Shown here: positions 1-30,163 of the stretch, piece after piece | Position numbering within the stretch: position 1 is the stretch's first letter | Layout: each line of letters starts with the position of its first letter | Assembly: GCA_902526795.1 (NCBI GenBank) | Contig: CABZMF010000001.1 | Location: 280,733-344,732, forward strand | Source: an uncultured Fidelibacterota bacterium | GTDB taxonomy: Bacteria; Fidelibacterota; Marinisomatia; Marinisomatales; Marinisomataceae | DNA length: 64,000 nt | Direction: 5' to 3' | Translations under genes and position numbers: made by a program | Notes under the pieces: generated by a model | The model's database searches: none | What the model saw: the letters and a program-made list of their open reading frames with translations, nothing else | What the model was told of the DNA's origin: nothing

Positions 1-387
1 TACGAAAATTCTTCTATAAGTAGAATGAAGCTTTTAGGAAATGTTATTCAAAAATTAAATTATGATTGTGATGGTGAATTGGTTTGGTTTTTACTGAATC
101 ATGATATGATAAAAGAAGTTAATGGTTCAAACCAAGATTTTGACGGTTTTACTGATTTTTTTAGAGGAATTAAAGGAGTAGAAGTTTCATTGATGTTATA
201 TGATTTAGGAGGAAAAGTTAGATTAAGCTTTAGATCTAAAGGTAAATATAAAGTTAATGAAATCGCAAAAAAAATGGGTGGAGGCGGTCATCCTTACGCT
301 GCTGCAGCTTTAGTAGATGGCGAATTTTCGGATGTCAAATCAACTGTTTTAAATTTAATATCAACCTATATTGGTAGTACAAAATGA
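1..387 (+). CDS. nrnA: C-terminal part of an NrnA-like oligoribonuclease/pAp phosphatase (DHH/DHHA1 family). The 5' end lies outside the window.
   Basis: The frame is open from base 1. It carries the DHHA1-type motif 'KKMGGGGHPYAAAA'. Confidence 0.7.
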   Translation, partial: YENSSISRMKLLGNVIQKLNYDCDGELVWFLLNHDMIKEVNGSNQDFDGFTDFFRGIKGVEVSLMLYDLGGKVRLSFRSKGKYKVNEIAKKMGGGGHPYAAAALVDGEFSDVKSTVLNLISTYIGSTK

Positions 388-2115: not shown

Positions 2116-2117
2116 TA

Positions 2118-2684
2118 GTGATTGGAGTCCTTGCTCTTCAAGGTAATTTTGATTCGCATGTTAAAATTTTAGAAAAAATTAATTTAAATCATAAGCTTGT
2201 CAAAGATTCTAAAGATTTGAGCTCGCTTAGTGGTTTGATCTTGCCTGGTGGGGAGTCAACTACTATATCAAATCTTTTGAGAAGAAATAAAAATATGATT
2301 GATGAGATAAATCTTCTTGCTAGTAAAAAGCCAATTCTAGGCTCTTGTGCTGGTTTAATTTTAATGTCTAAAAATTCCAACGATAATAGAGTACATAATT
2401 TTGATTTTTTGGATATTACTACAGATAGAAATGCTTACGGAAGGCAAGTATATTCATTTGAGGCTGAAATTAATGTTAAGTATGGAAAAATTAGTTCTAA
2501 TTTAAACTCTTTATTCATTAGAGCACCAAAAGTTAATGAAATTGGTAGAAAAGTTGAAATACTTGCGACTTATAAAAACGAAATAGTTGCTGTTAAGCAG
2601 GGAAAGCATGTTGGATTATCTTGCCATCCCGAATTATTGGATGAAACTTTGATACATGAAATTTGCTTTAAAGGTAAAAAATGA
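2118..2684 (+). CDS. pdxT: Pyridoxal 5'-phosphate synthase, glutaminase subunit (GTG start)
   Basis: 'LPGGESTT', the 'GSCAGLIL' nucleophile Cys and 'CHPE' are present. It is adjacent to pdxS. Confidence 0.9.
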   Translation: MIGVLALQGNFDSHVKILEKINLNHKLVKDSKDLSSLSGLILPGGESTTISNLLRRNKNMIDEINLLASKKPILGSCAGLILMSKNSNDNRVHNFDFLDITTDRNAYGRQVYSFEAEINVKYGKISSNLNSLFIRAPKVNEIGRKVEILATYKNEIVAVKQGKHVGLSCHPELLDETLIHEICFKGKK

Positions 2685-4552
2685 AATATCTGAAAAAGAT
2701 TAATTCACCAGAAGATTTAAAAGAAATTCCAAAGGATGAATTAAGTGAAGTTTGCCAAGAGCTTCGAACATATATCACAGAAACAATTAATCAGATTGGC
2801 GGTCATTTGGCGCCTACACTTGGTGCCATTGAAATAACAACTGCAGTTCATTATGTTTTTAGTGCTCCGAAGGATAAAATAGTATGGGACACAGGTCATC
2901 AAGCATATGCTCACAAAGTACTTACTGGTAGGTATAGCCAATTTCCAACAATAAGAAGATATAAAGGATTAAGTGGTTTTTTAAAACGCTCTGAAAGCGA
3001 GTTTGATGTTTTTGGAGCTGGGCATGCATCAACTTCCATTTCTGCAGCACTTGGCATGGCAGTTAGCAGAGATTTAGATAATGATAATTTTAAAGTTATT
3101 AGTATTATTGGTGATGGAGCTTTATCAGGGGGTTTGGCTTTTGAAGCTCTCAATAATGCTGGTAACATTAGAAAACAAATGCTCGTTATTGTAAACGATA
3201 ATGATATGTCCATAAGTCCTAACGTAGGTGCTTTTAGAAACTATCTTGTTAAGATTGCGACAAACAAAAGATATAATAACCTAAGAAAAGGAATTTATAA
3301 TACTATAAAAAAGCTACCAAAAAGTCTTAAAATTTTGGAAACAATTTTGAGAAAAGCTGAATCCAGTGCAAAAAAATTCTTTCTTCCAACAACAGTTTTT
3401 GAAGATTTAGGTTTTAGATACTTTGGTCCAGTAGACGGTCACAATATTGAAGAAATGGTTGAGGTTTTAGAAAATATAAAAGATTTAAATACCCCAGTTG
3501 TTTTACATGCAATTACCAAAAAAGGAAAAGGACTCGAATACGCTGAAGATGATCCAATCAAATATCACGGGGTTAAGGAGAAAAAGGAAAATAACCAAGT
3601 AACACAAAATCAAACACCAATTTATCAAAATGTTTTTGGTGAAGTTTTATGTGATTTAGCAGATGAAAACAAAGATGTAGTGGCCATTACTGCTGCAATG
3701 AGAGAAGGAACAGGACTAGTAGAATTTTCTTCAAGATTTCCAGAAAGATTTTATGATGTTGGAATTGCTGAGGGTCACGCAGTAACTTTTAGCGGAGGAC
3801 TATCAACACAGGGAAAAATCCCAATTGTTGCTATATACTCAACTTTTTTGCAGAGAGCTTTTGATCATGTGATCCACGATGTAGCTCTTCAAAATTTGCC
3901 AGTTATTTTTTGTATGGATCGATCTGGTTTGGTTGGAGAAGATGGTGCAACTCATCACGGAGTATTAGATATCGCTTATTTAAGATGTATTCAAAATATC
4001 ATAGTTTCAGCTCCAAAAGATGGAAATGAATTAAGAGATTTGATTTACACTGCTACACTCAACAAGCAAAAACCATTTACAATTAGATATCCAAAAGAAC
4101 AATCTGTGAGGTTTGAAAAAAAATCTCCAAATCAAATTGAAATAGGTACATGGGAAGTATTAGTTCAAGGTAGCGATGTACTTATTTTGGCTGTTGGTTC
4201 GATGGTAAGTAAAAGCATGGAAGTTCATAGTATGCTTCTTGAAAAAGGTATTTCGTCAGAGGTGGTAAATTGTAGATTTATCAAGCCGATGGACAAGAAT
4301 TATTTAAAAGAATTTTTATCAAAATTTAGTTTCGTTGTTACAATTGAAGAAGGTGTAAAAGATGGAGGTTTTGGAGAAGGTATTATCAACTATTCAAATG
4401 AAAATAGTATATCTAATAAAATATTAACTTTAGGGGTTCCAAATAGGTTTGTTGATCACGGGCCCAGAAATATTTTATTACATGAAGTAGGTTTAGATTC
4501 CATAAGTATGTTTGAAAAAATTTATAACTTTTTTAGGAAAAATAATGAGTAA
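2681..4552 (+). CDS. dxs: 1-deoxy-D-xylulose-5-phosphate synthase
   Basis: 'GGHLAPTLG', the 'GDGALSGG' TPP motif and 'DRSGLVGEDGATHHG' are present. Length is 623 aa. Confidence 0.95.
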   Translation: MKYLKKINSPEDLKEIPKDELSEVCQELRTYITETINQIGGHLAPTLGAIEITTAVHYVFSAPKDKIVWDTGHQAYAHKVLTGRYSQFPTIRRYKGLSGFLKRSESEFDVFGAGHASTSISAALGMAVSRDLDNDNFKVISIIGDGALSGGLAFEALNNAGNIRKQMLVIVNDNDMSISPNVGAFRNYLVKIATNKRYNNLRKGIYNTIKKLPKSLKILETILRKAESSAKKFFLPTTVFEDLGFRYFGPVDGHNIEEMVEVLENIKDLNTPVVLHAITKKGKGLEYAEDDPIKYHGVKEKKENNQVTQNQTPIYQNVFGEVLCDLADENKDVVAITAAMREGTGLVEFSSRFPERFYDVGIAEGHAVTFSGGLSTQGKIPIVAIYSTFLQRAFDHVIHDVALQNLPVIFCMDRSGLVGEDGATHHGVLDIAYLRCIQNIIVSAPKDGNELRDLIYTATLNKQKPFTIRYPKEQSVRFEKKSPNQIEIGTWEVLVQGSDVLILAVGSMVSKSMEVHSMLLEKGISSEVVNCRFIKPMDKNYLKEFLSKFSFVVTIEEGVKDGGFGEGIINYSNENSISNKILTLGVPNRFVDHGPRNILLHEVGLDSISMFEKIYNFFRKNNE

Positions 4553-6143: not shown

Positions 6144-6551
6144 ATGAGTAAAGTTTCAACATCAATTTTAATTATTTTTATCCTCATAGTTGGTTGGATT
6201 GTTTATTTAACAAATGTTAAAAAAGATAATTCTTTAACAGTCAGATACTATTCAATTTCTGAATTAGCAAGAGAGATAGATGATATTCAAAAAGTAAAAG
6301 TTGGTGGATATATAAAGCCAAACTCAATTGAAATTTCAGATGAAGATCAGTTGGATGTATCTTTTTTTGTCTATCAAAATAATGATAGTGTTAAAGTAAA
6401 TTATTATGGAATCAGACCTGATCTATTTAAAGATGATGCCGAAGTTGTGGTTTCTGGTTCTTATACAAATAACCTTATATCAGCTACTGAACTTCAAACT
6501 AAATGTGCCTCTAGATATGAAGGGGACCTTAAAAACATTGAGAAAATATAA
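6144..6551 (+). CDS. ccmE: Cytochrome c maturation haem chaperone CcmE, variant type with CXXXY in place of HXXXY
   Basis: It has an N-terminal TM anchor. 'RPDLFKDDAEVVVSG' aligns with E. coli 'LPDLFREGQGVVVQG'. The haem-binding position reads 'KCASRY' where E. coli has 'KHDENY'. Confidence 0.85.
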   Translation: MSKVSTSILIIFILIVGWIVYLTNVKKDNSLTVRYYSISELAREIDDIQKVKVGGYIKPNSIEISDEDQLDVSFFVYQNNDSVKVNYYGIRPDLFKDDAEVVVSGSYTNNLISATELQTKCASRYEGDLKNIEKI

Positions 6552-8518
6552 TGATTTCTCAAATTGGTAGTATCGCAGTGAGCCTAGCTGGTGGTTTAAT
6601 TTTTTCTTCTTTCCTTTTTTTAGGCATCTACAGAAAATCTAAGAATGAAGTTTATTTACAAATTTCAGAAAGAGCAATTTTAGCAAGTTCTTATAGCATA
6701 TTTCTTGCATTTTTTTGCTTATTAAATGAGTTACTTATAAGTAATTTTAATTTACAATATGTAGCTCAATACACAAGTTATGAAACCCCTTTATTTTTTA
6801 AGGTTACCGCATTATGGGCTGGCCAAGCAGGATCTTTACTATTTTGGTCGTTTATAACTGCTCTCTTTACAGTTACTTATATTTTCACAACCCTAAGAAA
6901 AATGAAAAGACTTAAATTTCACTCCTTCATAATAATATCTTTTATTTATTCATTCTTTATAATTCTTTCTTCTTTTATTGCAAATCCATTTGAACCTGTA
7001 TCCTCTGATATTATTGTCCAAAATGGAAATGGTCTAAATCCTTTATTACAAAATTTCTTTATGGCTATTCACCCGCCGATATTATATGTTGGATTTACTG
7101 GTTCGGCTATTATTTTTGTAATGGCATTAGCAGCTTCTATTTCAAAAGATATTTCTTTTGATTGGGTTCAATCAATTAGAAGATGGTCTTTGTTCGTGTG
7201 GACTTTTCTTTCAGCTGGAATTATTTTGGGTGGATATTGGGCATATAATGAGTTGGGATGGGGTGGATATTGGGCATGGGATCCTGTAGAAAACTCATCA
7301 TTAATGCCTTGGCTTACTTTAACAGCTTTTATTCATTCATCTATGATTCAAGAAAAGAGAGGAATGTTAAAGAAGTGGAATTTTTTATTAGCAACATCAA
7401 CTTATATACTAGTTATTTTAGGCACATTTATTACACGAAGTGGTGTTATTTCATCTGTTCATTCGTTCACGGCTGAAAATTTAGGCCCTGTATTTTTTAC
7501 ATTTTTATCTCTTCTTATTATTTATACTATTTTTTGGTTTTTTAAGAGAAAATCTTATCTAGACACTCCAGATAAAATTGATTCTTTTTCTTCGCGAGAA
7601 GGAGGCTTTCTTTATAATAATTTAATTTTAATACTAATGTGTTTTACAATCATGTGGGGTACTCTATTTCCAATTTTATCAGAGGCGTGGGATGGAAATA
7701 AAATTTATGTTGGTGCATCTTTTTTTAATCAATTGAATATTCCAATTGGCCTAGTTTTATTATTTTTAATGGGTATTGGACCTTTGCTATCTTGGAATAA
7801 TACTTCTAGAAATGTTTTATTATCGAGATTTAAAGTACCAATGTTTATTAGTTTTTTTAGTGGATTGATTTATCTTATTTTTTCAACCTTTTTCCAACTA
7901 TATGTTTTTGTAGCTATAATGGGAGTTTCATTCACTCTAAGTTCAATTTTGGGTGAATTTTATAAATCATACAAAAGGCAAACAAGAGCATCTAATTTTC
8001 TTGACGCTCTTTTTAGAATGTTATTAAGCAATAGACATCAAAACGGAGGATATATAGTTCATATTGGAATTGTTCTATTATTTATTGGATTTATTGGAAG
8101 AGCTTTTGAAGTTGAAAAAGAATTTAGCTTATCACCTGGAGAACAGATCTATTTTGCAAATTATGTATTTAAATTAAATAGTATTAAAAGTGAGGCACGA
8201 GACAATCACTATGCTTTTTTAAGTGATATAGATGTTGTTGATAACAATAATCAATTACTAACGAATTTAAAACCTGAGAAAAGAATCTACTTTTACTGGA
8301 ACTCTGATCCTGAAAAGAGACAACCTCATAGCGAGTTAGATATTCATAGTACAATTCAAAAAGATATTTATTCTATTTTTTCTGCGTATGATGCTCAAAA
8401 AAATATTGGATACTTTAAAATAATGGTTAATCCACTTGTAAACTGGGTTTGGATAGGTGGTGTATTAATGGTACTTGGTTCTTTATTCGCTTTTTGGCCC
8501 TCAAGAAAGCGAAAATAA
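6551..8518 (+). CDS. ccmF: Cytochrome c maturation protein CcmF (haem lyase component)
   Basis: It has the WWD motif 'WGGYWAWDPVENSSLMPWL' and is polytopic, 655 aa. Confidence 0.93.
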   Translation: MISQIGSIAVSLAGGLIFSSFLFLGIYRKSKNEVYLQISERAILASSYSIFLAFFCLLNELLISNFNLQYVAQYTSYETPLFFKVTALWAGQAGSLLFWSFITALFTVTYIFTTLRKMKRLKFHSFIIISFIYSFFIILSSFIANPFEPVSSDIIVQNGNGLNPLLQNFFMAIHPPILYVGFTGSAIIFVMALAASISKDISFDWVQSIRRWSLFVWTFLSAGIILGGYWAYNELGWGGYWAWDPVENSSLMPWLTLTAFIHSSMIQEKRGMLKKWNFLLATSTYILVILGTFITRSGVISSVHSFTAENLGPVFFTFLSLLIIYTIFWFFKRKSYLDTPDKIDSFSSREGGFLYNNLILILMCFTIMWGTLFPILSEAWDGNKIYVGASFFNQLNIPIGLVLLFLMGIGPLLSWNNTSRNVLLSRFKVPMFISFFSGLIYLIFSTFFQLYVFVAIMGVSFTLSSILGEFYKSYKRQTRASNFLDALFRMLLSNRHQNGGYIVHIGIVLLFIGFIGRAFEVEKEFSLSPGEQIYFANYVFKLNSIKSEARDNHYAFLSDIDVVDNNNQLLTNLKPEKRIYFYWNSDPEKRQPHSELDIHSTIQKDIYSIFSAYDAQKNIGYFKIMVNPLVNWVWIGGVLMVLGSLFAFWPSRKRK

Positions 8519-8608
8519 GTGGAAATATTTAATCAATTTTTTATATTTTTCTTTCTAATATTGGTAATTTTCTATGTATTTTGGCCTTTGATAAAGCAAA
8601 TAAAATAA
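8519..8608 (+). CDS. Candidate 29-aa single-TM micro-ORF between ccmF and ccmA
   Basis: A GTG lies immediately after the ccmF TAA. Translation is (M)EIFNQFFIFFFLILVIFYVFWPLIKQIK. Its TAA overlaps the ccmA ATG as TAATG. It is not in the supplied ORF track. Confidence 0.35.
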   Translation: MEIFNQFFIFFFLILVIFYVFWPLIKQIK

Positions 8609-9207
8609 TGTTAACTGTAGATAATCTTTCTAAGTCATTTTCAAACACACCAATTCTAAAAAACGTAAATTTTTCATTAGAGTTAGGAAAAATTTGTTTG
8701 ATTATCGGTAATAACGGATCTGGTAAAACTACATTTCTTAAATGCTTATCAGGATTAATGAATTATGAATCTGGAACAATAAACTTCAATACAAATAACG
8801 GATATTTATTTCTTAGTGATAAGCTTAATATTTTTGGAGATTTAACTATTGAGGAAAATTTAAAGGTCCTATCAATTTATCATAATCATACTTTTGATCA
8901 ATCAGTTTTTAATGAATCCCTTGCTATTCTTAATATTAAACAATTCAAAGATTTACCTTTGAAGTTTTTATCTAGAGGAAACTTGCAAAGAAATAAATTA
9001 TGTATTGCAATGAATTTAAATTGGGACTATTTATTAATAGATGAGCCTTTTAGTAATCTAGATAAAGATGGTGTTAAAATTTTTAATGAATTGTTCAATA
9101 ATTTTAAATTAAAAAATAAATCTATTATTTTTTCAACGCATCAAAATGATAATAAATTATCCATTGACAAAGTAATTTCAGTGGAAGATTTCAAGGAAAT
9201 TAAATGA
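8608..9207 (+). CDS. ccmA: Haem exporter ABC ATPase CcmA
   Basis: Walker A 'GNNGSGKTT', Walker B 'LLIDEP' and a degenerate signature 'LSRGNLQR' are present. I prefer the ATG at 8608 over the TTG at 8581. Confidence 0.8.
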   Translation: MLTVDNLSKSFSNTPILKNVNFSLELGKICLIIGNNGSGKTTFLKCLSGLMNYESGTINFNTNNGYLFLSDKLNIFGDLTIEENLKVLSIYHNHTFDQSVFNESLAILNIKQFKDLPLKFLSRGNLQRNKLCIAMNLNWDYLLIDEPFSNLDKDGVKIFNELFNNFKLKNKSIIFSTHQNDNKLSIDKVISVEDFKEIK

Positions 9208-9863
9208 TTTTACAACTTTTAAAAAATGAATTTTATTTGGAGAGAAAGTCATCTTTTAATGTGCTATACATTTCATTTTTTGCATTTTCATGTTTAATGT
9301 TCTTACTGTTTTCTTTCCCTCTGTCAAAAGTCTATGATACAACAATTTTTACAGGTTTTTTCTGGATAATAGTTTCACTTTCAACCATTAAATTAATAGA
9401 AAATTCATTTGCAAGAGAAAAGGATTATAATATTCATGATTTAATATATTCTACATCAAGTGATTCTACATTAATATTTATAGCAAAATTATTTTCTCTC
9501 ACCATTATATTATTGATGGTTCAATTTATTATTTTTATGAGTTACATGATAATATCCGATATGAACTTTGCTATTTTGATGAGATTGATAATTCTAAGCA
9601 GCATAACAAATTTTGGACTGATATCATTCGGAATACTAATTTTTTTACTAACAAATACAAATACCTCTAAAAGTTTTTTATTTCCTGTAATATTTTTTCC
9701 ATTAATAATTCCAGTTCTTGTAAATGCTTCAAATATTCTTTTTGGAATAATTATTGGAGAAAAACTATCTTTATATATTGAATCTTGGATGATTTTATTA
9801 ACTTTTGCCCTAATTGGAACCCTTTTAGGGATTAATTTATTTGGGAGATTAATTAAACAATAA
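9204..9863 (+). CDS. ccmB: Haem exporter membrane protein CcmB
   Basis: It is a polytopic 219-aa membrane protein in the canonical position between ccmA and ccmC, with overlapping junctions. Confidence 0.7.
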   Translation: MILQLLKNEFYLERKSSFNVLYISFFAFSCLMFLLFSFPLSKVYDTTIFTGFFWIIVSLSTIKLIENSFAREKDYNIHDLIYSTSSDSTLIFIAKLFSLTIILLMVQFIIFMSYMIISDMNFAILMRLIILSSITNFGLISFGILIFLLTNTNTSKSFLFPVIFFPLIIPVLVNASNILFGIIIGEKLSLYIESWMILLTFALIGTLLGINLFGRLIKQ

Positions 9864-10510
9864 TGAGTTTAACCTTTTTTATAATAACAATTCTATTGAT
9901 GATTTTCAATTTAGTTTGGATAATTTTTTTTACTCCAATGGTTCCTGAACAAGAATGGGCTCAAAAAATATTTTATCTTCATGTTCCTATTGCTTGGTCT
10001 GGTTTTTTAGCATATTTCATTGTAATGATTAGTGGAGTTTATTTTCTTTTCACAAAAAATCTTAAATACGACAGAATTGGTTTAGCTTCAGCTGAGATAG
10101 GAACTATCTTTACTGCTTTAGTCTTAATAACTGGTCCAATTTGGGCAACGCCAATTTGGGGTCAACCCTGGGTTTGGGAACCTAGATTAATTACCACATT
10201 AGTATTATTTCTAATATATATTGGATATTTTATAATGAGAAACATCGGATTATATAGACAAAGAGCAGCACTTGTTTGTGCTATTATAGGAATTATTGCA
10301 TTTTTAGATATACCTATTATTTTTGCGTCCGTAAATTTTTGGGCTGCTGAGATTCAATCTCATCCCCAACTTGGAATGAACAAACAGCCTTCTGGAATTT
10401 TAAATCCTTTCTTATTCTCCTTATTATCATTCACTTTTTTAATGATTTTAATGCTATTGTTGAAAGTTGAAGTTCTGAAAAAAAAGGATATTGAGAATAA
10501 ATATGTTTAA
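9863..10510 (+). CDS. ccmC: Haem exporter/haem-handling protein CcmC
   Basis: It has the Trp-rich motif 'WGQPWVWEPRL' and a conserved His context 'YLHVPIAW'. Confidence 0.88.
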   Translation: MSLTFFIITILLMIFNLVWIIFFTPMVPEQEWAQKIFYLHVPIAWSGFLAYFIVMISGVYFLFTKNLKYDRIGLASAEIGTIFTALVLITGPIWATPIWGQPWVWEPRLITTLVLFLIYIGYFIMRNIGLYRQRAALVCAIIGIIAFLDIPIIFASVNFWAAEIQSHPQLGMNKQPSGILNPFLFSLLSFTFLMILMLLLKVEVLKKKDIENKYV

Positions 10511-10601
10511 TTTTTTATCTTATTTTTTGTCAGCACTTTTTGTTGTATTTATTACTATTTTTGTTTGGTTTATCATTAACATTAAAAAATATATAAATTA
10601 A
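10503..10601 (+). CDS. Candidate CcmD-like 32-aa single-TM micro-ORF
   Basis: Its ATG overlaps the ccmC stop (ATGTTTAA). Translation is MFNFLSYFLSALFVVFITIFVWFIINIKKYIN. It sits in the canonical ccmD position after ccmC. It is not in the ORF track. Confidence 0.45.
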   Translation: MFNFLSYFLSALFVVFITIFVWFIINIKKYIN

Positions 10602-10619
10602 TTCGGGGGAATTAAAAAT

Positions 10620-11684
10620 ATGGAAAGAAAAATTGTACATGTTGTTGGGACTGGTACTATAGGCGAACCGCTAATTGGAATTCTTTGTGAGCAAAGAAGT
10701 AATTTAGGAATAGATGAAGTTACTTTTCATAAACAAACCCCATTAACAAAAGATGCTCCTAAAATTAAAAATTTAATGGCCAAAGGTGCAAGACTTGCAG
10801 TTCATGAAGATAGAGTTGAAAGTTTTAAAGAAATAGGCTTGGAACCAGAATTTACAATGGAAGAGGCTGTTTCAAGAAGCTCTGTTGTTATTGATTGTAC
10901 ACCAAAAGGTTTTGGACACAAAAATAAATTAGATTTTTACGAAAAATATTCAGATAAAGTTAAAGGATTTCTTGCGCAAGGAAGTGAAGATGGTTTTGGT
11001 AAAAAATATGCCAGAGGTGTTAATGACCATGTGGTAAATTCTGAAGATCAATTTTTACAAATTGTATCGTGCAATACACACAATATTGCATGTTTGGTTA
11101 ATACAATAGCATTAAGCATTTCGCCTGATAATTTGGTCAGTGGAAAGTTTGTTTGTATTCGTAGAAGTAATGATATAAGTCAAATTGGAAGCTTTGTACC
11201 TGCACCAACAGTAAATGATCATGGTCATCCAATATACGGAACGCATCATGCTGAAGATGCTGCTGGGTTATTTAAAACTATGAATTTAGATCTTGATTTA
11301 TTTTCTTCAGCAATGAAAGTCAATTCTCAGTATATGCATACTGTTTGGTTTAATTTGAAAGTAAAAGAGCCTACCTCAAAACAAAAAGTTATTGATCTAC
11401 TTGCAAGCAATGATAGAGTATCATTAACAGAACATCATGCTGCAAATGAGGTTTTTTCATTTGGAAGAGACCAGGGATTGTATGGAAGAATTTTGAATCA
11501 AACTGTTATTGTTGAAGATTCAATTAATGTTCGTAATGACCATGAAGTATCTGGATTTTGTTTTACACCGCAGGACGGCAACTCAATTCTCTCAAGTATT
11601 GCTGCTACGGTTAGATTTTTAAATCCACATTCGTATCAAGATAAGATTAATTCCCTTGGCGGATTTTTCTTTGACAGAGTTTAA
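10620..11684 (+). CDS. Type II (archaeal-type) glyceraldehyde-3-phosphate dehydrogenase homologue
   Basis: It has the Rossmann motif 'VVGTGTIGE', plus 'VIDCTPKGFG', the catalytic-Cys context 'IVSCNTHN', 'IRRSND' and 'THHAED'. These are collinear with archaeal GAPDH as I recall it. A GGGGGA SD lies upstream. Confidence 0.7.
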   Translation: MERKIVHVVGTGTIGEPLIGILCEQRSNLGIDEVTFHKQTPLTKDAPKIKNLMAKGARLAVHEDRVESFKEIGLEPEFTMEEAVSRSSVVIDCTPKGFGHKNKLDFYEKYSDKVKGFLAQGSEDGFGKKYARGVNDHVVNSEDQFLQIVSCNTHNIACLVNTIALSISPDNLVSGKFVCIRRSNDISQIGSFVPAPTVNDHGHPIYGTHHAEDAAGLFKTMNLDLDLFSSAMKVNSQYMHTVWFNLKVKEPTSKQKVIDLLASNDRVSLTEHHAANEVFSFGRDQGLYGRILNQTVIVEDSINVRNDHEVSGFCFTPQDGNSILSSIAATVRFLNPHSYQDKINSLGGFFFDRV

Positions 11685-16417: not shown

Positions 16418-17197
16418 ATGAACCTTTTTGAGATAAGTTTTTTAAAGTTTACACTTACTGACCTTTTTGACTTGATTTTAGTAACCTTCATATTCTCTTA
16501 TGCATATTCATATTTCAGGGGTACAAGAGGAGGTCAAATGCTCATCGGTTTGTTAATTATTTTTTTTGCAGGGTTTATTATTAATATTTTAGGATTTAAA
16601 GCTACTTCATGGCTTATAAATCTTTTTCAAACTGTATGGGTAGTAGTATTTGTAATCCTGTTTCAACCTGAAATAAGAAGATTGCTAACTTCAGTTGGTC
16701 AAAATCGTATTTTAAGAAAGCTTTTCCAAATTGAGAAAAATGAAATTCAAGAAGATATTTTATCAAGTATCGCAGAAATAAAAAGAAATAATTGGGGAGC
16801 TTTACTTGTTTTTGAAAGAGAAAACTCATTAAAAAATGTTGTTTCAGATGCTGTACCTATGCATGCTTCATTTAGTCCTGAGTTACTGGTTTCAATTTTT
16901 AATCCATCATCTCCTTTACATGACGGAGCAGTAGTTATTCATAATAATCTTATTGAGGCAGCAGCATGTATATTACCACTTACAGAAAGTAAAACTTTAA
17001 ATCCTGAAATGGGTACACGACACAGAGCAGCGTTAGGAATTTCCGAGGAAAGCGACGCAATTGCAGTAGTTATATCAGAAGAGAGCGGAAAAATTTCTGT
17101 TGCAGAGAATGGATTTTTTATAAGTTCAGGCCTTTCTTTAGATGCTCTTGGTAAAGTTCTTAAAGATAAAATGAATGAATTTATTGAGGAAGTTTAA
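16418..17197 (+). CDS. cdaA: Diadenylate cyclase (c-di-AMP synthase), membrane-anchored CdaA type
   Basis: It has three N-terminal TM segments and a DAC domain with 'HDGAVVI' and 'GTRHRAALGISEESDA'. Confidence 0.9.
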   Translation: MNLFEISFLKFTLTDLFDLILVTFIFSYAYSYFRGTRGGQMLIGLLIIFFAGFIINILGFKATSWLINLFQTVWVVVFVILFQPEIRRLLTSVGQNRILRKLFQIEKNEIQEDILSSIAEIKRNNWGALLVFERENSLKNVVSDAVPMHASFSPELLVSIFNPSSPLHDGAVVIHNNLIEAAACILPLTESKTLNPEMGTRHRAALGISEESDAIAVVISEESGKISVAENGFFISSGLSLDALGKVLKDKMNEFIEEV

Positions 17198-17199
17198 AT

Positions 17200-18675
17200 A
17201 TGTTAAAAGATAAGATTTTAGATTTATTAAATAGATCCGACTTTATGACTTTATCTACGAGTGTTGCAGGAAACCCCTCTGCAGCAAATGTTTACTTTGC
17301 TAATGATGGTTTAGATATATATTTTTTTACTTTTAATCCATCAAGAAAAGCTGTTCAAATATCAATGAATCCTAAAGTTCAAATTGTGATTAGGCCAGAC
17401 GGGGAAGATGGTATAAAAGAATTGCAAATAGATGCTTACGCTTCAAAAGTTTCAGATAAGAAAGAGATAGACAAAGCAAGAAAAGCAATATTAAATGTTA
17501 CAAAAGCTTTCTCTGAATATATGCACGATGATTTCTTAATTACCAATGATGTAATTGGCTATTACAAGATCAAACCAACTACAATAAAATATGTCGATTT
17601 TTTTGCGGAAAAACAATTTGAATGGATTGAAATTCCTGAAAATAGGATAGGCCTATTTACTGAAATAAAAAATAGTATTGTTAATACTTTAAAATATTGG
17701 GTTGCTGTTGTAAGAGCACCTTTCCTAACAGCAACAATTGCCCCTATAATGCTTGGTTCAGCTATTGCTTATAAACAGTTTGGTGCTTTTGATTGGTCAA
17801 TATTTTGGATGGTATTAATGGGTGCTGTTTGTGCTCAAATTGGTACAAATAATATTAATGATTATTTTGATCATAAAACTAGAAATGATGAAATGAATAA
17901 GTTAGCTAGCCCTTTTAACGGTGGGTCAAGGGCTATTCAATCTGGATTAATTACCCCTACAAATATGCTCCTGCTTTCAATTTTCTTTTTTTCGTGTACA
18001 ATCTTTGTTGGTCTTAATTTAAACAACCTCTTTTTTGATGGAAAGGTTGATTCAATCTTAATGTATATGGGATATTTGGGTGTATTTTTGGGAGTGATGT
18101 ATACTGGATTTTTTAAACTTGCATACAATGGTCTCGGCGATTTAGCAGTATTTATTGGTTTTGGTCCTCTTATGGTGTATGGTGCAGCTTTGATGCAAAA
18201 CTTAGCAGTAGCACCAACTCAATCAATTGATCCAATAGTTACAATATTTTACTCAGTTCCTGTTGGAATATTTATTGCCTTAGTCCTTTTTATAAATTGT
18301 TTCCAAGATTATAATGCTGATAAGGCCGCAAATAAAAATAGCTGGGTTGTTAAATTAGCTGGTCCAGATGAAAAAGCTAATTATAGAAAACCATTTTCAG
18401 TTTGGAAAATTTTAATGGTTATTTCATTTCTTTTGATTGTTGGAGCATCTGTTTATGCACAAAATTATTTTACATTAATAGCATTAATTCCATTACTTAT
18501 TTTTAATTTTGCATCTAAAAAAGGTTCTGAGTGGTTAGTTGAATGGGAAAAAGAAGATGCTAATCTTCAGCAATTACCTTATGAACTATTAATTGTTAAT
18601 GTATCAACAATTGGGATTCATTTTTTAACTGGAGTACTGTTAACAATTGGAGTATTACTAAGTGTATGGATTTAA
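17200..18675 (+). CDS. Fusion protein. The N-terminal part is a PNPOx-like FMN-binding split-barrel domain. The C-terminal part is a MenA-like UbiA-family prenyltransferase.
   Basis: Residues ~1-150 resemble the pyridoxamine-5'-phosphate-oxidase/general-stress-protein-26 fold ('FMTLSTSVAGNPSAANVYFA'). Residues ~165-491 are collinear with E. coli MenA ('NNINDYFDHKTRND', 'YNGLGDLAVFIGFGP', 'FQDYNADKAANKNSWVVKLAG'). Confidence 0.75.
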   Translation: MLKDKILDLLNRSDFMTLSTSVAGNPSAANVYFANDGLDIYFFTFNPSRKAVQISMNPKVQIVIRPDGEDGIKELQIDAYASKVSDKKEIDKARKAILNVTKAFSEYMHDDFLITNDVIGYYKIKPTTIKYVDFFAEKQFEWIEIPENRIGLFTEIKNSIVNTLKYWVAVVRAPFLTATIAPIMLGSAIAYKQFGAFDWSIFWMVLMGAVCAQIGTNNINDYFDHKTRNDEMNKLASPFNGGSRAIQSGLITPTNMLLLSIFFFSCTIFVGLNLNNLFFDGKVDSILMYMGYLGVFLGVMYTGFFKLAYNGLGDLAVFIGFGPLMVYGAALMQNLAVAPTQSIDPIVTIFYSVPVGIFIALVLFINCFQDYNADKAANKNSWVVKLAGPDEKANYRKPFSVWKILMVISFLLIVGASVYAQNYFTLIALIPLLIFNFASKKGSEWLVEWEKEDANLQQLPYELLIVNVSTIGIHFLTGVLLTIGVLLSVWI

Positions 18676-19761
18676 AAGAAGCATATTCGTTATCTTTAGA
18701 AAAATATAATCAAATTAGGAGGCATCTTTGACCTTGAATCAAAGACCTCTGAGCTTAAAAAATTAAAAGAGCAAATTTCTAATCCCACAATGTGGGAAAA
18801 TAAATCTGAATCTACCTCTGTAATGAAAAAAATATCTTTTCTTGAAAAAGATATTACCTTAAGAAAAAATCTTGTTCAAAAAGCTGAAGATGTAGAAGTA
18901 CTTTTTGAATTCTTAAATGAAAATCAAGTTAAAGAAGAAGAAGTTAAAAAAGAGCTTAATACCTTTTCTAATCTTCTGAAGGAGTTTGAATTAAAACTAA
19001 TATTAAATGGTAAAAATGATATTAACGATGCTATAATTACAATTCACCCTGGTGCAGGAGGTACAGAAAGTCAAGATTGGGCTGAAATGCTGTATCGCAT
19101 GTATTCCATGTGGTCAGAATCAAAAGGTTTTAAATTTAATGTTATCGACTTCCAAAACGGTGATGAAGCAGGATTAAAAGATTGTACCGTTGAAATTTCT
19201 GGTGATTATGCTTATGGTTTATTACAAGCTGAGATTGGTATTCATAGACTAGTTAGGATTTCTCCATTTGACTCTAATAGCAGAAGACATACATCATTTG
19301 CTTCAGTGTCAGTTTCTCCAGCAGTTAATGAAGATATTGATATTGAAATAAATCAAAAAGATTTAAGAATAGATACATTTAGGTCAAGCGGTGCTGGCGG
19401 TCAACATGTTAATAAAACAGATTCAGCAATAAGAATAACTCATATGCCATCAGGTATTGTTTCTCAATGTCAAACGCAAAGATCCCAGCACAAAAATAAA
19501 GAGCAAGCATTAAAAGTATTAAAATCAAAACTTTTTCAATTAGAAGTTGAGAAGCAGATTCTTAATAAAAAAGAACTTGAAGGAGAAAAAAAAGATATTG
19601 GTTGGGGTAGTCAAATTAGATCCTATGTTTTTCATCCTTATAACATGATTAAAGATCATAGAACCAAACATGAGGTAGGAAATATAAAATCAGTTATGGA
19701 CGGTAATATTGATGATTTTATATATAGTTATTTATTAGATAAAATGGAAAAAAATAAATAA
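18666..19761 (+). CDS. prfB: Peptide chain release factor 2, requiring a programmed +1 frameshift at 18729
   Basis: Frame 0 reads ATG(18666) MDLKEAYSLSLEKYNQIRRHL and then TGA. The +1 frame continues DLESKTSELKKLKEQISNPTMWEN... into the 323-aa ORF. 'SPF' and 'SGAGGQHVN' are present. Confidence 0.93.
18717..18732 (+). other. prfB programmed +1 frameshift cassette
   Basis: AGGAGG-CAT-CTT-TGA-C: an internal SD 3 nt before the slippery CTT, followed by an in-frame UGA-C. E. coli has AGGGGG-TAT-CTT-TGA-C. Confidence 0.9.
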
Positions 19762-26232: not shown

Positions 26233-27432
26233 ATGAATAGTACAATTGTTAAATTCTTAAAGACAGCTGTTAGCGTTGCTGTTGCATTCTTATGCTTTAC
26301 AGTTATTATATTACTAGCTTTTTACTTTTATCTTTCAGATGGAGTTGAGTTTAAGCTTGATAAATCAAATCAAACTTTAAATAGCCTAACAAAAAGATTC
26401 GAACTCGATTTTAAGGAAACTTCTTCAATTTACTTTAAAGCTAGAGAAGAAAATATTGATGCATATATCACATTAGAGGATGTAATAATTAAACGTTCTG
26501 GAAATATTTTAATCAATTCTAAAAATATAACTTTAAATACCACCCTAAATTTTGCTAAAACAGTACAGTTTGTATTTGAAATTGTTTTAAATAATAATAC
26601 AGATTTAAATTTGATTAATCCTGTAAGCATAAAGCTTCAAAATCCAGTTTATAACCTTGCTAGTATTAATAATCAAAAAGCTGAAATTGATAGAAGTGAA
26701 AGATTTTTTCCTGTAATTATTAAAGCTGAAAATGGAATTTTATTTGATGGAGATATAGAAATTGGTCAATTTGACTTAATCTTAAATTTAAACCAATATT
26801 CTGAAAATCCTACCATCGAAAAGTATAAGCTCAGATTAAAATCATCTGAAAACTTTCCTCTTAGTTATATTACTAAGTTTTTCGAAGATGTAGAAAGCAT
26901 TGGAGATTTAAAAGAAGAAGTATCATTTGACATTACTTTAGAAGATGCCAATGTGAATAGTTTTGATTTAACTCAAAAACTTAATGGAATAATTCAAATC
27001 AGAAATACTACATTGAGATTGAAAACTTTTCCAGTTGAATTAAAACCTGAGCCAATTAGAAGATTAGATTTAGATTTAAATATCATAAATAACATTGGAC
27101 AAGCAACTTTAGTTGGAACAGTGTACAATCCTAAAAAAAACTTGGGTCTCCAAACAGAGCCTAACTTACAGATTGGAGGAACTTTAAACTTTGAAGAAAT
27201 TTCGAAACCTGAACTGAATTTAATCGTTAATGGTTATGATATATACTTTGCTAAGCTCGAAAATTTGAACTTAAATGGTATCACGGATTTAACAGTCTCA
27301 ATAATTGGTAAAAATGTATTAGATTTACAGGGTTCCTTAAAGATTAAAAAAAGTAATGGTTTTTTAGTCCCATTAAAAGATACTGAATTTGAAACAAAAC
27401 ATAGAGTAAGAAACGGTTATGAAAAAAAATGA
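26233..27432 (+). CDS. Hypothetical N-terminally membrane-anchored, beta-rich protein (weak AsmA/TamB-like flavour only)
   Basis: It has a single N-terminal TM ('VSVAVAFLCFTVIILLAFYFYL') and an Asn/Leu/Ile-rich repetitive beta-type sequence. It overlaps the moxR start by 14 nt. I recognised no diagnostic motif. Confidence 0.5.
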   Translation: MNSTIVKFLKTAVSVAVAFLCFTVIILLAFYFYLSDGVEFKLDKSNQTLNSLTKRFELDFKETSSIYFKAREENIDAYITLEDVIIKRSGNILINSKNITLNTTLNFAKTVQFVFEIVLNNNTDLNLINPVSIKLQNPVYNLASINNQKAEIDRSERFFPVIIKAENGILFDGDIEIGQFDLILNLNQYSENPTIEKYKLRLKSSENFPLSYITKFFEDVESIGDLKEEVSFDITLEDANVNSFDLTQKLNGIIQIRNTTLRLKTFPVELKPEPIRRLDLDLNIINNIGQATLVGTVYNPKKNLGLQTEPNLQIGGTLNFEEISKPELNLIVNGYDIYFAKLENLNLNGITDLTVSIIGKNVLDLQGSLKIKKSNGFLVPLKDTEFETKHRVRNGYEKK

Positions 27433-28421: not shown

Positions 28422-29300
28422 ATGTCAAAAGAAATTCTCAAAAAAGTTCGTCGAATTGAAATAAGAACTAAAAATATCGTTAATGACTTTTTTGGTGGAG
28501 ATTATCACTCAAATTTCAAAGGAAGAGGAATGACTTTTTCTGAAGTAAGAGAATATGTTCCTGGTGATGATGTTAGATCTATTGATTGGAATGTAACAGC
28601 CAGAACTGGAAAACCGCACATTAAAATTTTTGAAGAGGAAAGAGAGCTATCTGTATTAATTCTTATCGACGTTAGCAGTTCTGGAGTTTTTGGTTCTAAA
28701 AAAGACTTAAAAATTGATTTAGGTATCGAAATTGCAGCTATGTTAAGTTTTTCAGCTATTAAAAATAATGATAAAGTTGGACTCGCATTATTCAGTGATA
28801 AAGTTGAAAAATATATTCCACCAAAAAAAGGAAAGAAACATGTCTTAAGACTTATTACTGATATTATGAATCATGATTTTGATAATAGCAATAAACGTAC
28901 TTCAATTAAAAATGCAATTGATTTTGCAAACAAGATATCAAAAAGAAAAAGCGTAATCTTTATAATTTCAGATTTTATAGATGATAATTTTTGGAATGAA
29001 CTAAAATTTTTAAATTTTAAGCATGATGTGGTTGGATTACAGATTTATGATTCTTACGAAAAAAATTTCCCTGATATTGGTCTAATAAACATTCATGACT
29101 CGGAAAGTGGTAATTCTACTTGGATTGATACATCAAGTAAAAAAAATAGAGAGAGATTTAAAAAAAATTCAAATGAGAAGCTTAATAATTTTTCAAAAAA
29201 ATGTAAAAATATTGGTTTTGATTTATTACAAATTAATACAGATGATGATTATATAAAGTTTCTCATGCAATTTTTTAGATCAAGAGCAAAAAGAAGCTAA
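28422..29300 (+). CDS. DUF58-family protein (vWA-like MoxR partner)
   Basis: It has 'VREYVPGDDVRSIDW' and sits directly downstream of moxR, as in Bat operons. Confidence 0.85.
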   Translation: MSKEILKKVRRIEIRTKNIVNDFFGGDYHSNFKGRGMTFSEVREYVPGDDVRSIDWNVTARTGKPHIKIFEEERELSVLILIDVSSSGVFGSKKDLKIDLGIEIAAMLSFSAIKNNDKVGLALFSDKVEKYIPPKKGKKHVLRLITDIMNHDFDNSNKRTSIKNAIDFANKISKRKSVIFIISDFIDDNFWNELKFLNFKHDVVGLQIYDSYEKNFPDIGLINIHDSESGNSTWIDTSSKKNRERFKKNSNEKLNNFSKKCKNIGFDLLQINTDDDYIKFLMQFFRSRAKRS

Positions 29301-30163
29301 TGAAATGTTTTATTTTAATTTCTCTAATTTTTATTTTTTCTTGCCAAGAAAATATAAAAGATCCCAGTATATTTTTCAAAACTTCCCCTGAAGCTACTCA
29401 AATTGGTTATCCAGTCACTCATAACATAACTATTAATGATTTAGGAGATTTATATAGTCTTGATTCAGTTGAATGGGCAGATTCGTCTTTATGGTTGTCT
29501 GATTCTTTAAAAGTTTTTATTAAAGAATCACAAATTGATACTTTTAAAAATTCAATATCTATTAATTATCAAATTACTTTTTGGGATACAGGTACAGTAG
29601 TGATACCACCTTTAAATGCTAATATTAGCTTTCCAGATTCTGTAAGTAGTACGATTTTTAGAACAGACTCATCATTTGTTTATGTATCAACAGTTATCGA
29701 TAGTTCAATGAAGAATATTATTGATGATAAGCCACTTAAAGATATTCAATTTCCAATTGAAAGATTAAAGTTGTTTTCATTGTTTTTAATAATAATTTTT
29801 ATTCTACTTGTTGCTCAATTAATTAGGAAAAGAAACACTAAAAAATTGTTAAATAGAAATTTTTTTAATTTTAATCCAAAATCAAAAGCCTTAAATGACA
29901 TTAAAAAAATTGATTTAACAAAAAATTCTGAAGAATTCTTTTTTGAAATTTCAGAATTACTCAGGAAATATTTCCAAAATAATTTTTATATAATATCTTT
30001 TGAAATGACTTCGTCAGAATTAAAAGAATTTTTTAAAGATAAAGATCTAAATAAATTATTAAATGAGATAGACCAAGTGAAATTTGCCAAAAAAGACCCA
30101 AACTTAGCTCAAAAAAAAGAAATTCTTGTTCTTCTAAAAAAAGTTATAAGAAAACTTCTATAA
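29300..30163 (+). CDS. BatD-like membrane lipoprotein (tentative)
   Basis: It has a lipoprotein signal 'LISLIFIFSC', an extracytoplasmic beta domain, one central TM ('LFSLFLIIIFILLVAQLI') followed by a basic stretch, and a cytoplasmic tail. It follows DUF58. Confidence 0.45.
   Translation: MKCFILISLIFIFSCQENIKDPSIFFKTSPEATQIGYPVTHNITINDLGDLYSLDSVEWADSSLWLSDSLKVFIKESQIDTFKNSISINYQITFWDTGTVVIPPLNANISFPDSVSSTIFRTDSSFVYVSTVIDSSMKNIIDDKPLKDIQFPIERLKLFSLFLIIIFILLVAQLIRKRNTKKLLNRNFFNFNPKSKALNDIKKIDLTKNSEEFFFEISELLRKYFQNNFYIISFEMTSSELKEFFKDKDLNKLLNEIDQVKFAKKDPNLAQKKEILVLLKKVIRKLL

Follow-up and report, generated by a model that had tools for sequence, protein, structure and literature searches.

MenA, a drug target, catalyzes the committed step of menaquinone synthesis at the membrane, and the E. 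coli enzyme (b3930; TIGR00751) has two Asp-rich motifs, an R-x-x-Q motif, and a nine-TM layout. Human UBIAD1 (menaquinone-4 synthase; 8djk), which prenylates a naphthoquinone head group, is a eukaryotic protein without a fused cofactor-binding domain. General stress protein 26 and its relatives (GSP26/COG3871; 3ec6, 3db0, and 2i02) are free-standing, soluble split-barrel proteins with no established biochemical function, and the split-barrel fold is also that of Ddn, one of the mycobacterial F420H2-dependent quinone reductases (Ddn/Fqr), which belong to another split-barrel subfamily, are separate proteins, and are not biosynthetic. Ddn, which is deazaflavin dependent, converts menadione and 1,4-naphthoquinone to quinols and is believed to be seated at the membrane via an amphipathic helix (PMC3567243). 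The prenylated naphthoquinone may also need a dedicated reduction after MenA and before MenG has acted: according to the part of PMC5299476 that cites Fatihi 2015, NdbB/NDC1 must reduce demethylphylloquinone ahead of MenG in cyanobacteria and plants. The joining of a soluble redox enzyme to a UbiA-family prenyltransferase has a precedent in the IspH-UbiA 'Rosetta stone' fusions (PMC4746011), although there the partner is the 4Fe-4S enzyme IspH, which supplies the prenyl donor, and the logic is different.

Here, we describe a gene at positions 17200..18675 (+) of a 64-kb stretch of DNA from an uncultured Fidelibacterota bacterium (the window, meaning that entire stretch), whose 491-aa product (ATG start, stop codon within this range) joins a GSP26-type barrel to a MenA-type enzyme, so that the barrel, unlike GSP26 itself, is tethered to a membrane protein. 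A literature search found no description of a characterized UbiA or MenA enzyme to which a cofactor-binding domain is fused, of a PNPOx-UbiA or PNPOx-MenA fusion, or of menaquinone synthesis in Marinimicrobia, in agreement with a preliminary annotation made from the DNA alone (the sequence-only reading), which knew of no characterized precedent; the Caldithrix genome paper held nothing useful about quinones. Database entries for the fusion proteins are labeled just 'DHNA octaprenyltransferase' or 'UbiA family prenyltransferase'.

A split barrel fused to a MenA-type prenyltransferase

The sequence-only reading proposed a single ORF while allowing that a sequencing or assembly frameshift, or an internal start, might conceal two separate genes. 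The ORF is continuous over its 491 codons, and the same two-domain protein recurs across hundreds of independent assemblies, in at least 271 species-level genomes, single-cell and long-contig assemblies among them, as well as in hundreds of metagenomic clusters. The carriers include SAR406/Marinimicrobia, Ca. Actinomarina (Actinomarinales), SAR202/Anaerolineales (Chloroflexota), Calditrichaceae, Asgard-labelled contigs, and others, and conservation in relatives is full-length over a range from 93% down to ~27% identity. Between the domains lies the motif FEWIEIPEN (aa 140-148; 17617..17643, +), a family-specific linker strand in which F140, E141, and P146 are 80% and N148 is 90% conserved among 110 sequences and which is modeled by AF2 with a pLDDT of 90-96. 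Selection on either half is strongly purifying (dN/dS 0.03-0.04 in the N-domain, 0.03-0.12 in the C-domain). The idea that two neighboring genes were joined by a frameshift or are separately translated from an internal start can essentially be dismissed, given the recurrence of the ORF, the conserved junction with its high linker pLDDT, and the lack of any in-frame ATG, GTG, or TTG between codons 140 and 175, and no evidence was found in its favor; the fusion is genuine.

The N-domain (aa 1-150; 17200..17649, +), which is predicted to be cytoplasmic, matches Pfam PNPOx_N (PF01243) over residues 2-93 at 39.8 bits against a cutoff of 28.1, and the same model recognizes 17 of 19 diverse N-domains of the family. 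A profile built from these 19 gives a full-length match to General stress protein 26 (3ec6; E 8.6e-17) and also matches 3db0 (E 3.7e-13), while Foldseek returns 2i02, 3db0, and 3ec6 with TM scores of 0.80-0.85 (0.85 for 3db0, 0.84 for 3ec6; E 1.2e-6 for 2i02), and the AF2 model places strands at residues 15-22, 25-36, 39-45, 59-64, 73-83, and 119-133. Pfam, profile, and structural comparison therefore agree on a GSP26/PNPOx-type barrel for the first ~150 residues, as originally assigned, and the concern that this region might match no split-barrel profile is removed by the PNPOx_N score. Pyridoxamine 5'-phosphate oxidase proper was considered and ruled out, as the PdxH model (TIGR00558) scores 13.8 bits against a cutoff of 180 and a PNP_phzG_C-type region is missing; by the window annotation, the organism has the PdxS/PdxT route. 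The F420-dependent PPOX-class models (TIGR03618 and relatives) also fall well short (22.4 vs 79.05, 15.2 vs 84.9, and 14.9 vs 125.3), a further difference from Ddn and Fqr. Similarity in fold and profile to the haem-binding split barrels (HugZ/HutZ/HOZ) is present, although weaker than that to GSP26, and the Foldseek list for the model includes the haem-binding barrels 6m0a, 5bnc, and 3gas, along with PhzG. No His or Cys occurs among the N-domain positions conserved at 80% or more in 110 sequences, which argues against His- or Cys-ligated haem. Membership in the split-barrel fold does not by itself imply FMN binding, since the group also includes haem-binding proteins and regulators (PMC11602992).

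Within the barrel, the motif NPSRKAVQISMNP (aa 46-58; 17335..17373, +), aligned to 'SKKITDIENNPNV' in 3ec6, is a candidate cofactor-phosphate-binding stretch in which, among 110 fusion proteins, R49 is 80%, K50 89%, Q53 96%, and N57 96% conserved; contact with a ligand is presumed. The polar residues K130 and N148 are also conserved in the 110 sequences. In several distant fusion clades, K50 gives way to non-basic residues, and over the whole family only Q53, G79, and P126 are near-invariant. Conservation of the N-domain across the 110 sequences is on par with that of the C-domain, and this pattern, like the dN/dS values, indicates that the N-domain is functional.

The barrel is followed by a helix (aa 152-171; 17653..17712, +) that leads to TM1, begins upstream of the first hydrophobic segment (168-190), is separated from the next helix (173-194) in the AF2 model, and probably lies along the membrane surface. 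The remainder of the protein (aa 172-491; 17713..18672, +) is a MenA/UBIAD1-type prenyltransferase that matches Pfam UbiA (PF01040) over residues 181-435 at 82 bits against a cutoff of 34.2. Residues 161-490 align end to end with residues 6-306 of E. coli MenA (25% identity, E 3e-18), so the proposed collinearity with that enzyme holds throughout. The sequence-only reading had counted about eight TM helices; nine hydrophobic segments are found, in agreement with the long helices of the AF2 model. Both of the Asp-rich motifs it named are also in place, with their key residues invariant in 110 homologues. The first, NDYFDHKTRND (residues 220-230; 17857..17889, +), lies in the predicted cytoplasmic loop between TM2 and TM3 and aligns to NDYGDAVKGSD in E. 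coli MenA (N220, D221, and D230 100%, D224 99% conserved), and it is followed in both proteins by R-x-x-Q. The second, N366-C-F-Q-D370-Y-N-A-D374-K-A-A-N-K379 (18295..18336, +), lies in the predicted cytoplasmic loop between TM6 and TM7 and aligns to NNLRDINSDRENGK in E. coli MenA (N366, D370, and D374 100%, K379 99%); the form originally quoted, QDYNADKAANKN, is found at residues 369-380. These motifs occupy loops 220-245 and 365-399, and an N-terminus-inside topology places both loops and the N-domain in the cytoplasm, from which we strongly infer that the barrel is on the active-site side of the membrane. The AF2 model of the fusion has a mean pLDDT of 93.7 and a pTM of 0.89, and this pTM together with the high-pLDDT linker suggests that the barrel may be rigidly docked.

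Aside from its additional 150-aa barrel and conserved linker, the fusion differs from E. coli MenA in a longer loop after motif 1, which carries the family-specific insert DExNKxxxPFNGGSR (PFNGGSR in the present protein), in a conserved insert in the TM8-9 loop, and in its location outside any men operon. The top NCBIfam matches of the C-domain are all MenA models, each below its cutoff: TIGR00751 only just (96.1 vs 102.15), NF004751 by far (118.8 vs 264), with the remaining MenA equivalogs lower. No CyoE/CtaB model is among the significant C-domain family matches. The closest solved structure is that of UBIAD1 (8djk; sequence E 6.8e-10, Foldseek TM 0.76), and the Foldseek matches to 8djk, 4tq4, and 4tq3 all have a probability of 1.00.

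Genomic context and the menaquinone pathway

In the window, the fusion gene lies 2 nt downstream of cdaA (16418..17197, +; TIGR00159, 213.6 bits against a cutoff of 188.8), and its last 10 nt are overlapped by the ATG of prfB (18666..19761, +), which has a programmed +1 frameshift. The gene order ftsH-folP-cdaA-fusion-prfB-lysS is restricted to one Marinimicrobia clade. A position directly after cdaA, where cdaR often lies in other bacteria, was correctly described in the sequence-only reading, but since the adjacency is confined to a single clade it appears coincidental, and we reject a functional link to cdaA or cdaR.

Outside this clade, the fusion gene can be followed immediately, in the same orientation and at a spacing of -28 to +78 nt, by a MenG/UbiE gene (TIGR01934, 184-200 bits against a cutoff of 158). 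Such a pair is present at 16 of the 17 loci from Actinomarina, at 5 from Marinimicrobia-B/Fidelibacterota, and at locus L083; the last encodes a 31%-identical fusion and lies on a GTPase-rich contig. A UbiE-like protein (P0366) and a fusion protein (P0062) are each encoded on a contig of 6125 bp, but these two contigs are unrelated. The Actinomarina fusion loci also carry a DsbB-family gene and a redoxin gene alongside, the DsbB family being quinone dependent, and at another locus (L089) a flavodoxin-like gene adjoins a stand-alone MenA-like gene. No MenG/UbiE gene is beside the fusion in the window or its clade; the search for the MenG of this clade covered relatives of at least 50% identity. 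Nor did tblastn with E. coli MenB, MenC, MenD, MenE, MenF, and MenH detect menB-F in the window or within 8 kb of the gene at 85 loci; in SAR202, the same searches matched only generic crotonases and ligases. No men or mqn gene is among the 56 annotated ORFs of the 66 in the window that are at least 110 aa long, the other 10 being short or nested on the opposite strand. An enoyl-CoA hydratase gene in the window (62326-63069) was considered as MenB and rejected on its annotation.

The presence of MenG/UbiE next to the fusion in three distant lineages points to a demethylmenaquinone-type product rather than an exotic acceptor, and a role in the synthesis of menaquinone-type (prenyl-naphthoquinone) quinones is strongly inferred, although the subthreshold scores to the MenA equivalog models and the absence of men/mqn neighbors at the searched loci count against it.

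Possible roles of the N-terminal domain

We tentatively favor, at somewhat less than even odds, an N-domain that is a flavin module holding the naphthoquinone head group in its reduced form for prenylation and methylation. The C-domain would polyprenylate a head group of the 1,4-dihydroxy-naphthoate type to give demethylmenaquinol, which the MenG/UbiE methyltransferase would then C-methylate. The N-domain, most likely binding flavin (FMN) on the cytoplasmic face beside the active site, would act as a two-electron naphthoquinone reductase that keeps the head group as, or restores it to, the hydroquinone, its targets being oxidized DHNA/naphthoquinone prior to prenylation and/or demethylmenaquinone prior to methylation. 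Such a reduction might be useful in oxic seawater, where low-potential quinols auto-oxidize. In this scheme, the bound flavin, the reduction that it would carry out, and the source of the electrons are all hypothetical, and the coupling of redox chemistry to prenylation that the sequence-only reading had suggested is plausible. Ddn and Fqr offer a functional analogy for this role and NdbB/NDC1 an analogous step, although the latter is a type II NAD(P)H dehydrogenase of unrelated fold encoded by a separate gene. Several observations stand against the reductase: the GSP26 subfamily is without an established catalytic function, K50 has its non-basic replacements, near-invariant positions in the barrel are few, no NAD(P)H-binding domain is present in the fusion, sister MenA-like proteins carry other N-domains, and E. 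coli MenA works in air without any such domain.

These sister proteins add weight to the main rival explanation, which we regard as only slightly less likely, that the N-domain is a ligand-binding input (for flavin, haem, or a quinone-like aromatic) rather than a catalyst. Occupancy or redox state of the barrel would change its packing on the cytoplasmic cap loops and so gate the prenyltransferase, linking its activity to quinone-pool or redox homeostasis. A PAS_9 domain occurs at the same N-terminal position of MenA-like sisters (P0156, P0171, and P0173), among them a Marinimicrobia cluster of 97 members, and another class (P0151) has an N-domain of ~190 aa with a predicted H-NOX-like fold (Foldseek TM 0.60-0.69). 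Both are classic sensor folds, and their presence at this position makes ligand-sensing inputs the easier explanation of the N-domains. In a rough NJ tree of the C-domains, which is poorly resolved, includes some 'stand-alone' entries that are likely gene fragments, and is too unresolved to distinguish one fusion event from several, the fused, stand-alone, and other-N forms are intermixed, implying that the N-domain behaves as an exchangeable accessory. The near-invariance of only three N-domain positions family-wide fits a sensor as well, the modeled rigid, high-confidence linker would suit allosteric coupling, and regulatory split-barrel proteins exist, namely CREG and GluTRBP (PMC11602992). 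However, the sisters with PAS or H-NOX-like domains may be paralogues that serve different functions: the PAS-MenA-like form, a paralogue present in low-GC Marinimicrobia, adjoins a TENA/haem-oxygenase-like gene and not MenG. GC content and tetranucleotide similarity, as indicators that PAS-MenA and PNPOx-MenA occur in one genome, are non-discriminating among low-GC marine genomes. It also weighs against a sensor that most characterized members of the PNPOx-like barrel group are flavoenzymes and that, to our knowledge, such barrels are not a recognized signaling input domain.

The absence of menB-F at the loci searched, where MenG is the sole linked gene, raises a third explanation, which we consider unlikely, in which the N-domain captures DHNA, naphthoquinone, or menadione of external origin and passes it on, perhaps once reduced, to the prenyltransferase. 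With MenG as the second gene, streamlined plankton without a DHNA pathway would thereby have a salvage route to menaquinone. Planar aromatics can be accommodated by split-barrel, PAS, and H-NOX/V4R-type folds alike, although no DHNA-binding split barrel is known. The carriers of the fusion (SAR406, Actinomarinales, Chloroflexota, and Asgard-labelled contigs) show close overlap with the lineages for which haem auxotrophy is predicted (bioRxiv 10.1101/2021.01.11.426183), and host-associated bacteria have been described that possess only menA and ubiE and for which DHNA serves as a growth factor (PMC5738691). On the other hand, men genes are often scattered and the searches covered loci rather than whole genomes, and the overlap with haem auxotrophy may simply reflect genome streamlining. 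A fully self-sufficient version, in which the barrel takes oxidized DHNA/naphthoquinone from seawater and reduces it by means of flavin, MenA prenylates it, and the adjacent MenG finishes the menaquinone, is less likely still.

PNPOx-like split barrels are obligate dimers, and most of the family-wide conservation of the N-domain is at structural positions (G79 and P126), so a ligand-free domain that serves only as a scaffold for dimerization or folding, or is a decaying relic, may also be envisioned. Its dN/dS rules out decay, and the conservation of surface- or pocket-type polar residues (R49, K50, Q53, N57, K130, and N148) in 110 sequences speaks against a pure scaffold, making this reading as a whole improbable. 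Most doubtful among the functional alternatives is an aromatic acceptor other than DHNA, as the sequence-only reading had suggested, in which a flavin/deazaflavin, haem/tetrapyrrole, or phenazine-like molecule bound or made by the barrel is converted to a new prenylated cofactor: although the subthreshold MenA scores, the insert after the first Asp motif, and the haem barrels and PhzG in the Foldseek list are in keeping with it, the suggestion is not supported, and against it stand the restriction of significant C-domain family matches to MenA or prenyltransferase models, the full collinearity with E. coli MenA including R-x-x-Q, the MenG/UbiE adjacency in three lineages, and the lack of a conserved His or Cys in the barrel.

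Implications for marine bacteria and the MenA-like family

Among the uncultured bacteria of the ocean, some of the most abundant, namely SAR406, Ca. Actinomarina, and SAR202, have the enzyme in this fused form. A barrel that reduces quinones, as we tentatively favor, would be the bacterial equivalent, in a fusion, of the NdbB/NDC1 step and would explain how low-potential naphthoquinols are handled in oxic water, whereas a sensor would be a rare instance in which quinone synthesis is controlled directly at the post-translational level. Should the salvage explanation prove true, SAR406, Actinomarina, and SAR202 would rely on a public good, a 'quinone head-group' dissolved in the water, alongside their predicted haem auxotrophy, and a new exchanged growth factor would become relevant for efforts to culture these lineages. 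The MenA-like subfamily may more generally be a modular platform on which PNPOx, PAS, and H-NOX-like N-domains tune quinone synthesis, and the fusion offers a testable function for the GSP26 family.

A split barrel and a MenA-type prenyltransferase in one gene

The fusion gene (17200-18675, forward strand) is a single ORF with an ATG start encoding 491 aa, and it lies at 31% GC in a co-directional run of housekeeping genes (ftsH, folP, cdaA, the fusion, prfB, lysS, and lolCE/D). Consistent with the sequence-only reading, this one ORF carries both a split barrel and a MenA-type prenyltransferase, with Pfam matches above cutoff for PNPOx_N (aa 2-93; 39.8 bits against 28.1) and for UbiA (aa 181-435; 82 bits against 34.2), and all features tested for the two superfamilies are present. 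Significant NCBIfam matches of the C-terminal two-thirds are to MenA/prenyltransferase models exclusively, and every one falls below its curated cutoff (nearest TIGR00751, 96.1 against 102.15); by sequence score the protein lies formally outside the MenA equivalog family, though it is MenA-like in alignment. E. coli MenA residues 6-306 are collinear end to end with aa 161-490 (25% identity, E 3e-18), and both Asp-rich motifs align as anticipated, NDYFDHKTRND with NDYGDAVKGSD and FQDYNADKAANKN with LRDINSDRENGKN. The predicted membrane domain also held, although hydropathy gives nine hydrophobic segments rather than the proposed 8 or so TM helices; an inside N-terminus would put the N-domain and both Asp loops (220-245 and 365-399) in the cytoplasm.

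The two-domain protein recurs in 556 word-indexed matches, from 93% down to ~51% identity and mostly named Candidatus Marinimicrobia, and exhaustive searching extends it to many 50%-identity clusters, down to ~27-30% identity. Its occurrence elsewhere, which the earlier reading had left to be checked, is therefore clear: at least 271 GTDB species genomes encode a relative, and the best 80 of these 271 are all full length. Lineage labels include Marinimicrobia/Fidelibacterota, SAR202 and Dehalococcoidia, Anaerolineales, Calditrichaceae, Ca. Actinomarina/OCS155, Chlorobiota, Bacteroidetes, and Zhuqueibacter, with a Hodarchaeales label on one cluster. The nearest relatives are SAR406 single-cell genomes (93% amino-acid identity for the fusion, 85.6% nucleotide identity over 17.5 kb). 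Against close relatives, dN/dS ranges from 0.025 to 0.043 in the N-domain and from 0.033 to 0.115 in the C-domain, the two domains are about equally conserved over 110 sequences (0.63 and 0.60, respectively), and codons 140-175 contain no in-frame ATG, GTG, or TTG. Because of this recurrence, purifying pattern of dN/dS, similar conservation, and lack of a junction start codon, a frameshift, a mis-assembly, or a separate internal gene is excluded for practical purposes, and the earlier concern that either a frameshift or an internal start might split the fusion into two genes has been answered in the negative.

Within the gene, nucleotide identity to the closest single-cell genomes (L001, L002, and L004) runs from 0.78 to 0.87 over the opening 600 nt and from 0.90 to 0.98 at nt 600-1350, a stretch at window ~17800-18550 that stands against the 85.6% background over 17.5 kb. 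dS is 1.4-2.3 in the N-domain and 0.24-0.27 in the C-domain. This patch looks like local recombination or synonymous-site constraint.

In an AF2 model made from 29 diverse homologs (mean pLDDT 93.7, pTM 0.89), a beta-barrel (15-133), a conserved strand (140-144), and a linker helix (152-171) precede the helical membrane domain. We infer that the linker helix lies on the membrane surface, and the pTM together with the high-confidence linker suggests that the N-domain may be docked over the prenyltransferase active site. In Foldseek comparisons with the PDB, the C-domain matches UBIAD1 (8djk, TM 0.76) and AfUbiA, and the N-domain matches PNPOx-like split barrels (2i02, E 1.2e-6; 3db0, TM 0.85; GSP26 3ec6, TM 0.84) and, more weakly, heme-binding split barrels. 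The lone N-domain sequence matches 3db0 and 3ec6 weakly, and a profile of 19 diverse N-domains matches GSP26 over its full length (E 8.6e-17), which, with the Pfam PNPOx_N match, bears out the proposed fold. PdxH, an F420-class FDOR (by score), and a HugZ-type heme protein were rejected as its identity. The window holds a second split-barrel protein, a stand-alone PPOX-type gene (59737-60333, forward; PF12766; TIGR04026 48.6 bits, cutoff 220), divergent from a bacteriorhodopsin-family (proteorhodopsin-type) gene (58975-59658, reverse).

Our search of the literature found no description of such a PNPOx-UbiA/MenA fusion, in line with the earlier statement that no characterized UbiA or MenA enzyme is known with such an N-domain; the closest parallel among UbiA fusions is IspH-UbiA (PMC4746011).

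Linkage to MenG/UbiE and the surrounding genes

Clustering of neighboring ORFs identified a single gene family linked to the fusion across phyla, the MenG/UbiE methyltransferase (184-200 bits against TIGR01934, cutoff 158; 124 bits for a shorter Actinomarina form). In 16 of the 17 Actinomarina loci, in five Marinimicrobia-B/Fidelibacterota loci (one more has it a few kb upstream), and on the Arf/Ras/Roc-rich contig L083, whose fusion is 31% identical, it is the next gene downstream in the same orientation, the gap being -28 to +78 nt. From this adjacency, we strongly infer that the fusion enzyme acts just ahead of the C-methylation of a prenyl-naphthoquinone, a MenA-type role. The same linkage argues against an exotic acceptor, contrary to the earlier suggestion of one other than DHNA. 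The check for further pathway genes found no menB-F in the window or within 8 kb at 85 related loci, and no mqn genes in the window.

Other neighbors vary. Actinomarina loci also hold a DsbB-family gene, a redoxin gene, and ABC exporter genes; the acyl-CoA synthetase (Chloroflexi, Calditrichaceae) and pntAB contexts of other relatives are uninformative. The position directly after cdaA, noted earlier as the cdaR slot, is correct, but the adjacency is confined to the window's clade. Downstream, prfB (18666-19761, forward) carries the well-known programmed +1 frameshift. In frame 0, MDLKEAYSLSLEKYNQIRRHL is followed by TGA (18729-18731) within AGGAGG..CTT TGA C, and translation picks up again at 18730. 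The prfB start codon, ATG at 18666, overlaps the final 10 nt of the fusion gene, and this overlap suggests translational coupling.

Further upstream (384-4552 and 6144-10510), ispH and dxs of the MEP pathway, which supplies the prenyl donor, flank pdxS/pdxT and are followed by a system I cytochrome c maturation cluster (ccmE, ccmF, ccmA, and ccmC) in which an unmatched ORF (9204-9863) occupies the expected place of ccmB. The ORFs at 25-387, 10620-11684, 26233-27432, and 29300-30163 (120-399 aa) matched nothing in Pfam or NCBIfam at the thresholds applied. A 1173-aa protein with POR and DUF6537 domains (43158-46679, forward) is presumably an indolepyruvate/2-oxoacid:ferredoxin oxidoreductase-like enzyme; after it comes an 860-aa protein bearing a T9SS C-terminal sorting domain.

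Candidate roles of the N-terminal domain

Aromatic prenylation needs an electron-rich hydroquinone, and such quinols auto-oxidize in air. We tentatively consider that the N-domain may be a flavin-dependent quinone reductase. Its family is mostly flavin-binding, R49, K50, Q53, and N57 are conserved and in register with the GSP26 motif, and it has no conserved His or Cys, which speaks against classical heme ligation. The order of barrel and then linker helix beside the membrane recalls Ddn, likewise a split barrel. Ddn reduces menadione and naphthoquinone and is considered to be attached to the membrane through an amphipathic helix (PMC3567243). By a further analogy, such an activity would parallel the dedicated reductase that phylloquinone synthesis requires between the MenA and MenG steps (PMC5299476), and one stand-alone MenA-like gene is flanked by polyprenyl synthase and flavodoxin-like genes. 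However, having this fold is no proof of FMN binding, and some members are regulators (PMC11602992). K50 is not kept in distant clades, near-invariance across the whole family is limited to Q53, G79, and P126, and the fusion lacks a dinucleotide-binding domain.

The subfamily signature (RAPFLTAT... NDYFDH... PFxGGSRxIQ) is also found behind different N-terminal domains. PAS_9 precedes it in P0156 (a 97-member Marinimicrobia cluster), P0171 (from a Micrarchaeia-labeled MAG), and P0173; the form of low-GC Marinimicrobia (P0156/P0295; 426 aa, at 10001-11281 of locus L082) is common in Tara samples; a TENA_THI-4/Haem_oxygenas_2 gene comes after it, and a HamA_HO-like gene is close by. In a third form (P0151, P0164, P0183, P0198, P0211, P0228, and P0253 of alignment A5), a ~190-aa domain with no significant Pfam match precedes the same MenA-like domain, and its AF2 model (pLDDT 84.6) resembles H-NOX domains (TM 0.60-0.69, E about 1e-3); heme binding by it is doubtful, as none of its residues is invariant in the alignment. 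Stand-alone MenA-like forms are interspersed among these in a rough tree. The one noted above between polyprenyl synthase and flavodoxin-like genes is P0168. Its run of geranylgeranyl-reductase-like, polyprenyl synthase, UbiA, and flavodoxin-like genes (3559-7668 of L089, a contig of archaeal appearance) resembles a compact cluster for quinone side chains and redox functions.

Three different ligand-binding folds thus occupy one N-terminal position, a pattern better matched by an input domain that can be exchanged (a sensor or aromatic-ligand binder) than by a fixed catalytic partner. It is because of this swapping that the quinone reductase is favored only tentatively, with the sensor rated almost as probable. 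A salvage enzyme that captures, reduces, and prenylates a head group seems improbable, but it would fit two observations: the carriers (SAR406, Actinomarina, Chloroflexota, and Asgard-labeled contigs; loci L001-L083) nearly coincide with predicted heme auxotrophs, namely SAR406, Actinomarinales, Chloroflexota, and Asgard (bioRxiv 10.1101/2021.01.11.426183), and some host-associated bacteria have only menA and ubiE and use DHNA as a growth factor (PMC5738691). Each of these mechanisms is put forward as a hypothesis for a fusion that is itself real, abundant, and uncharacterized.
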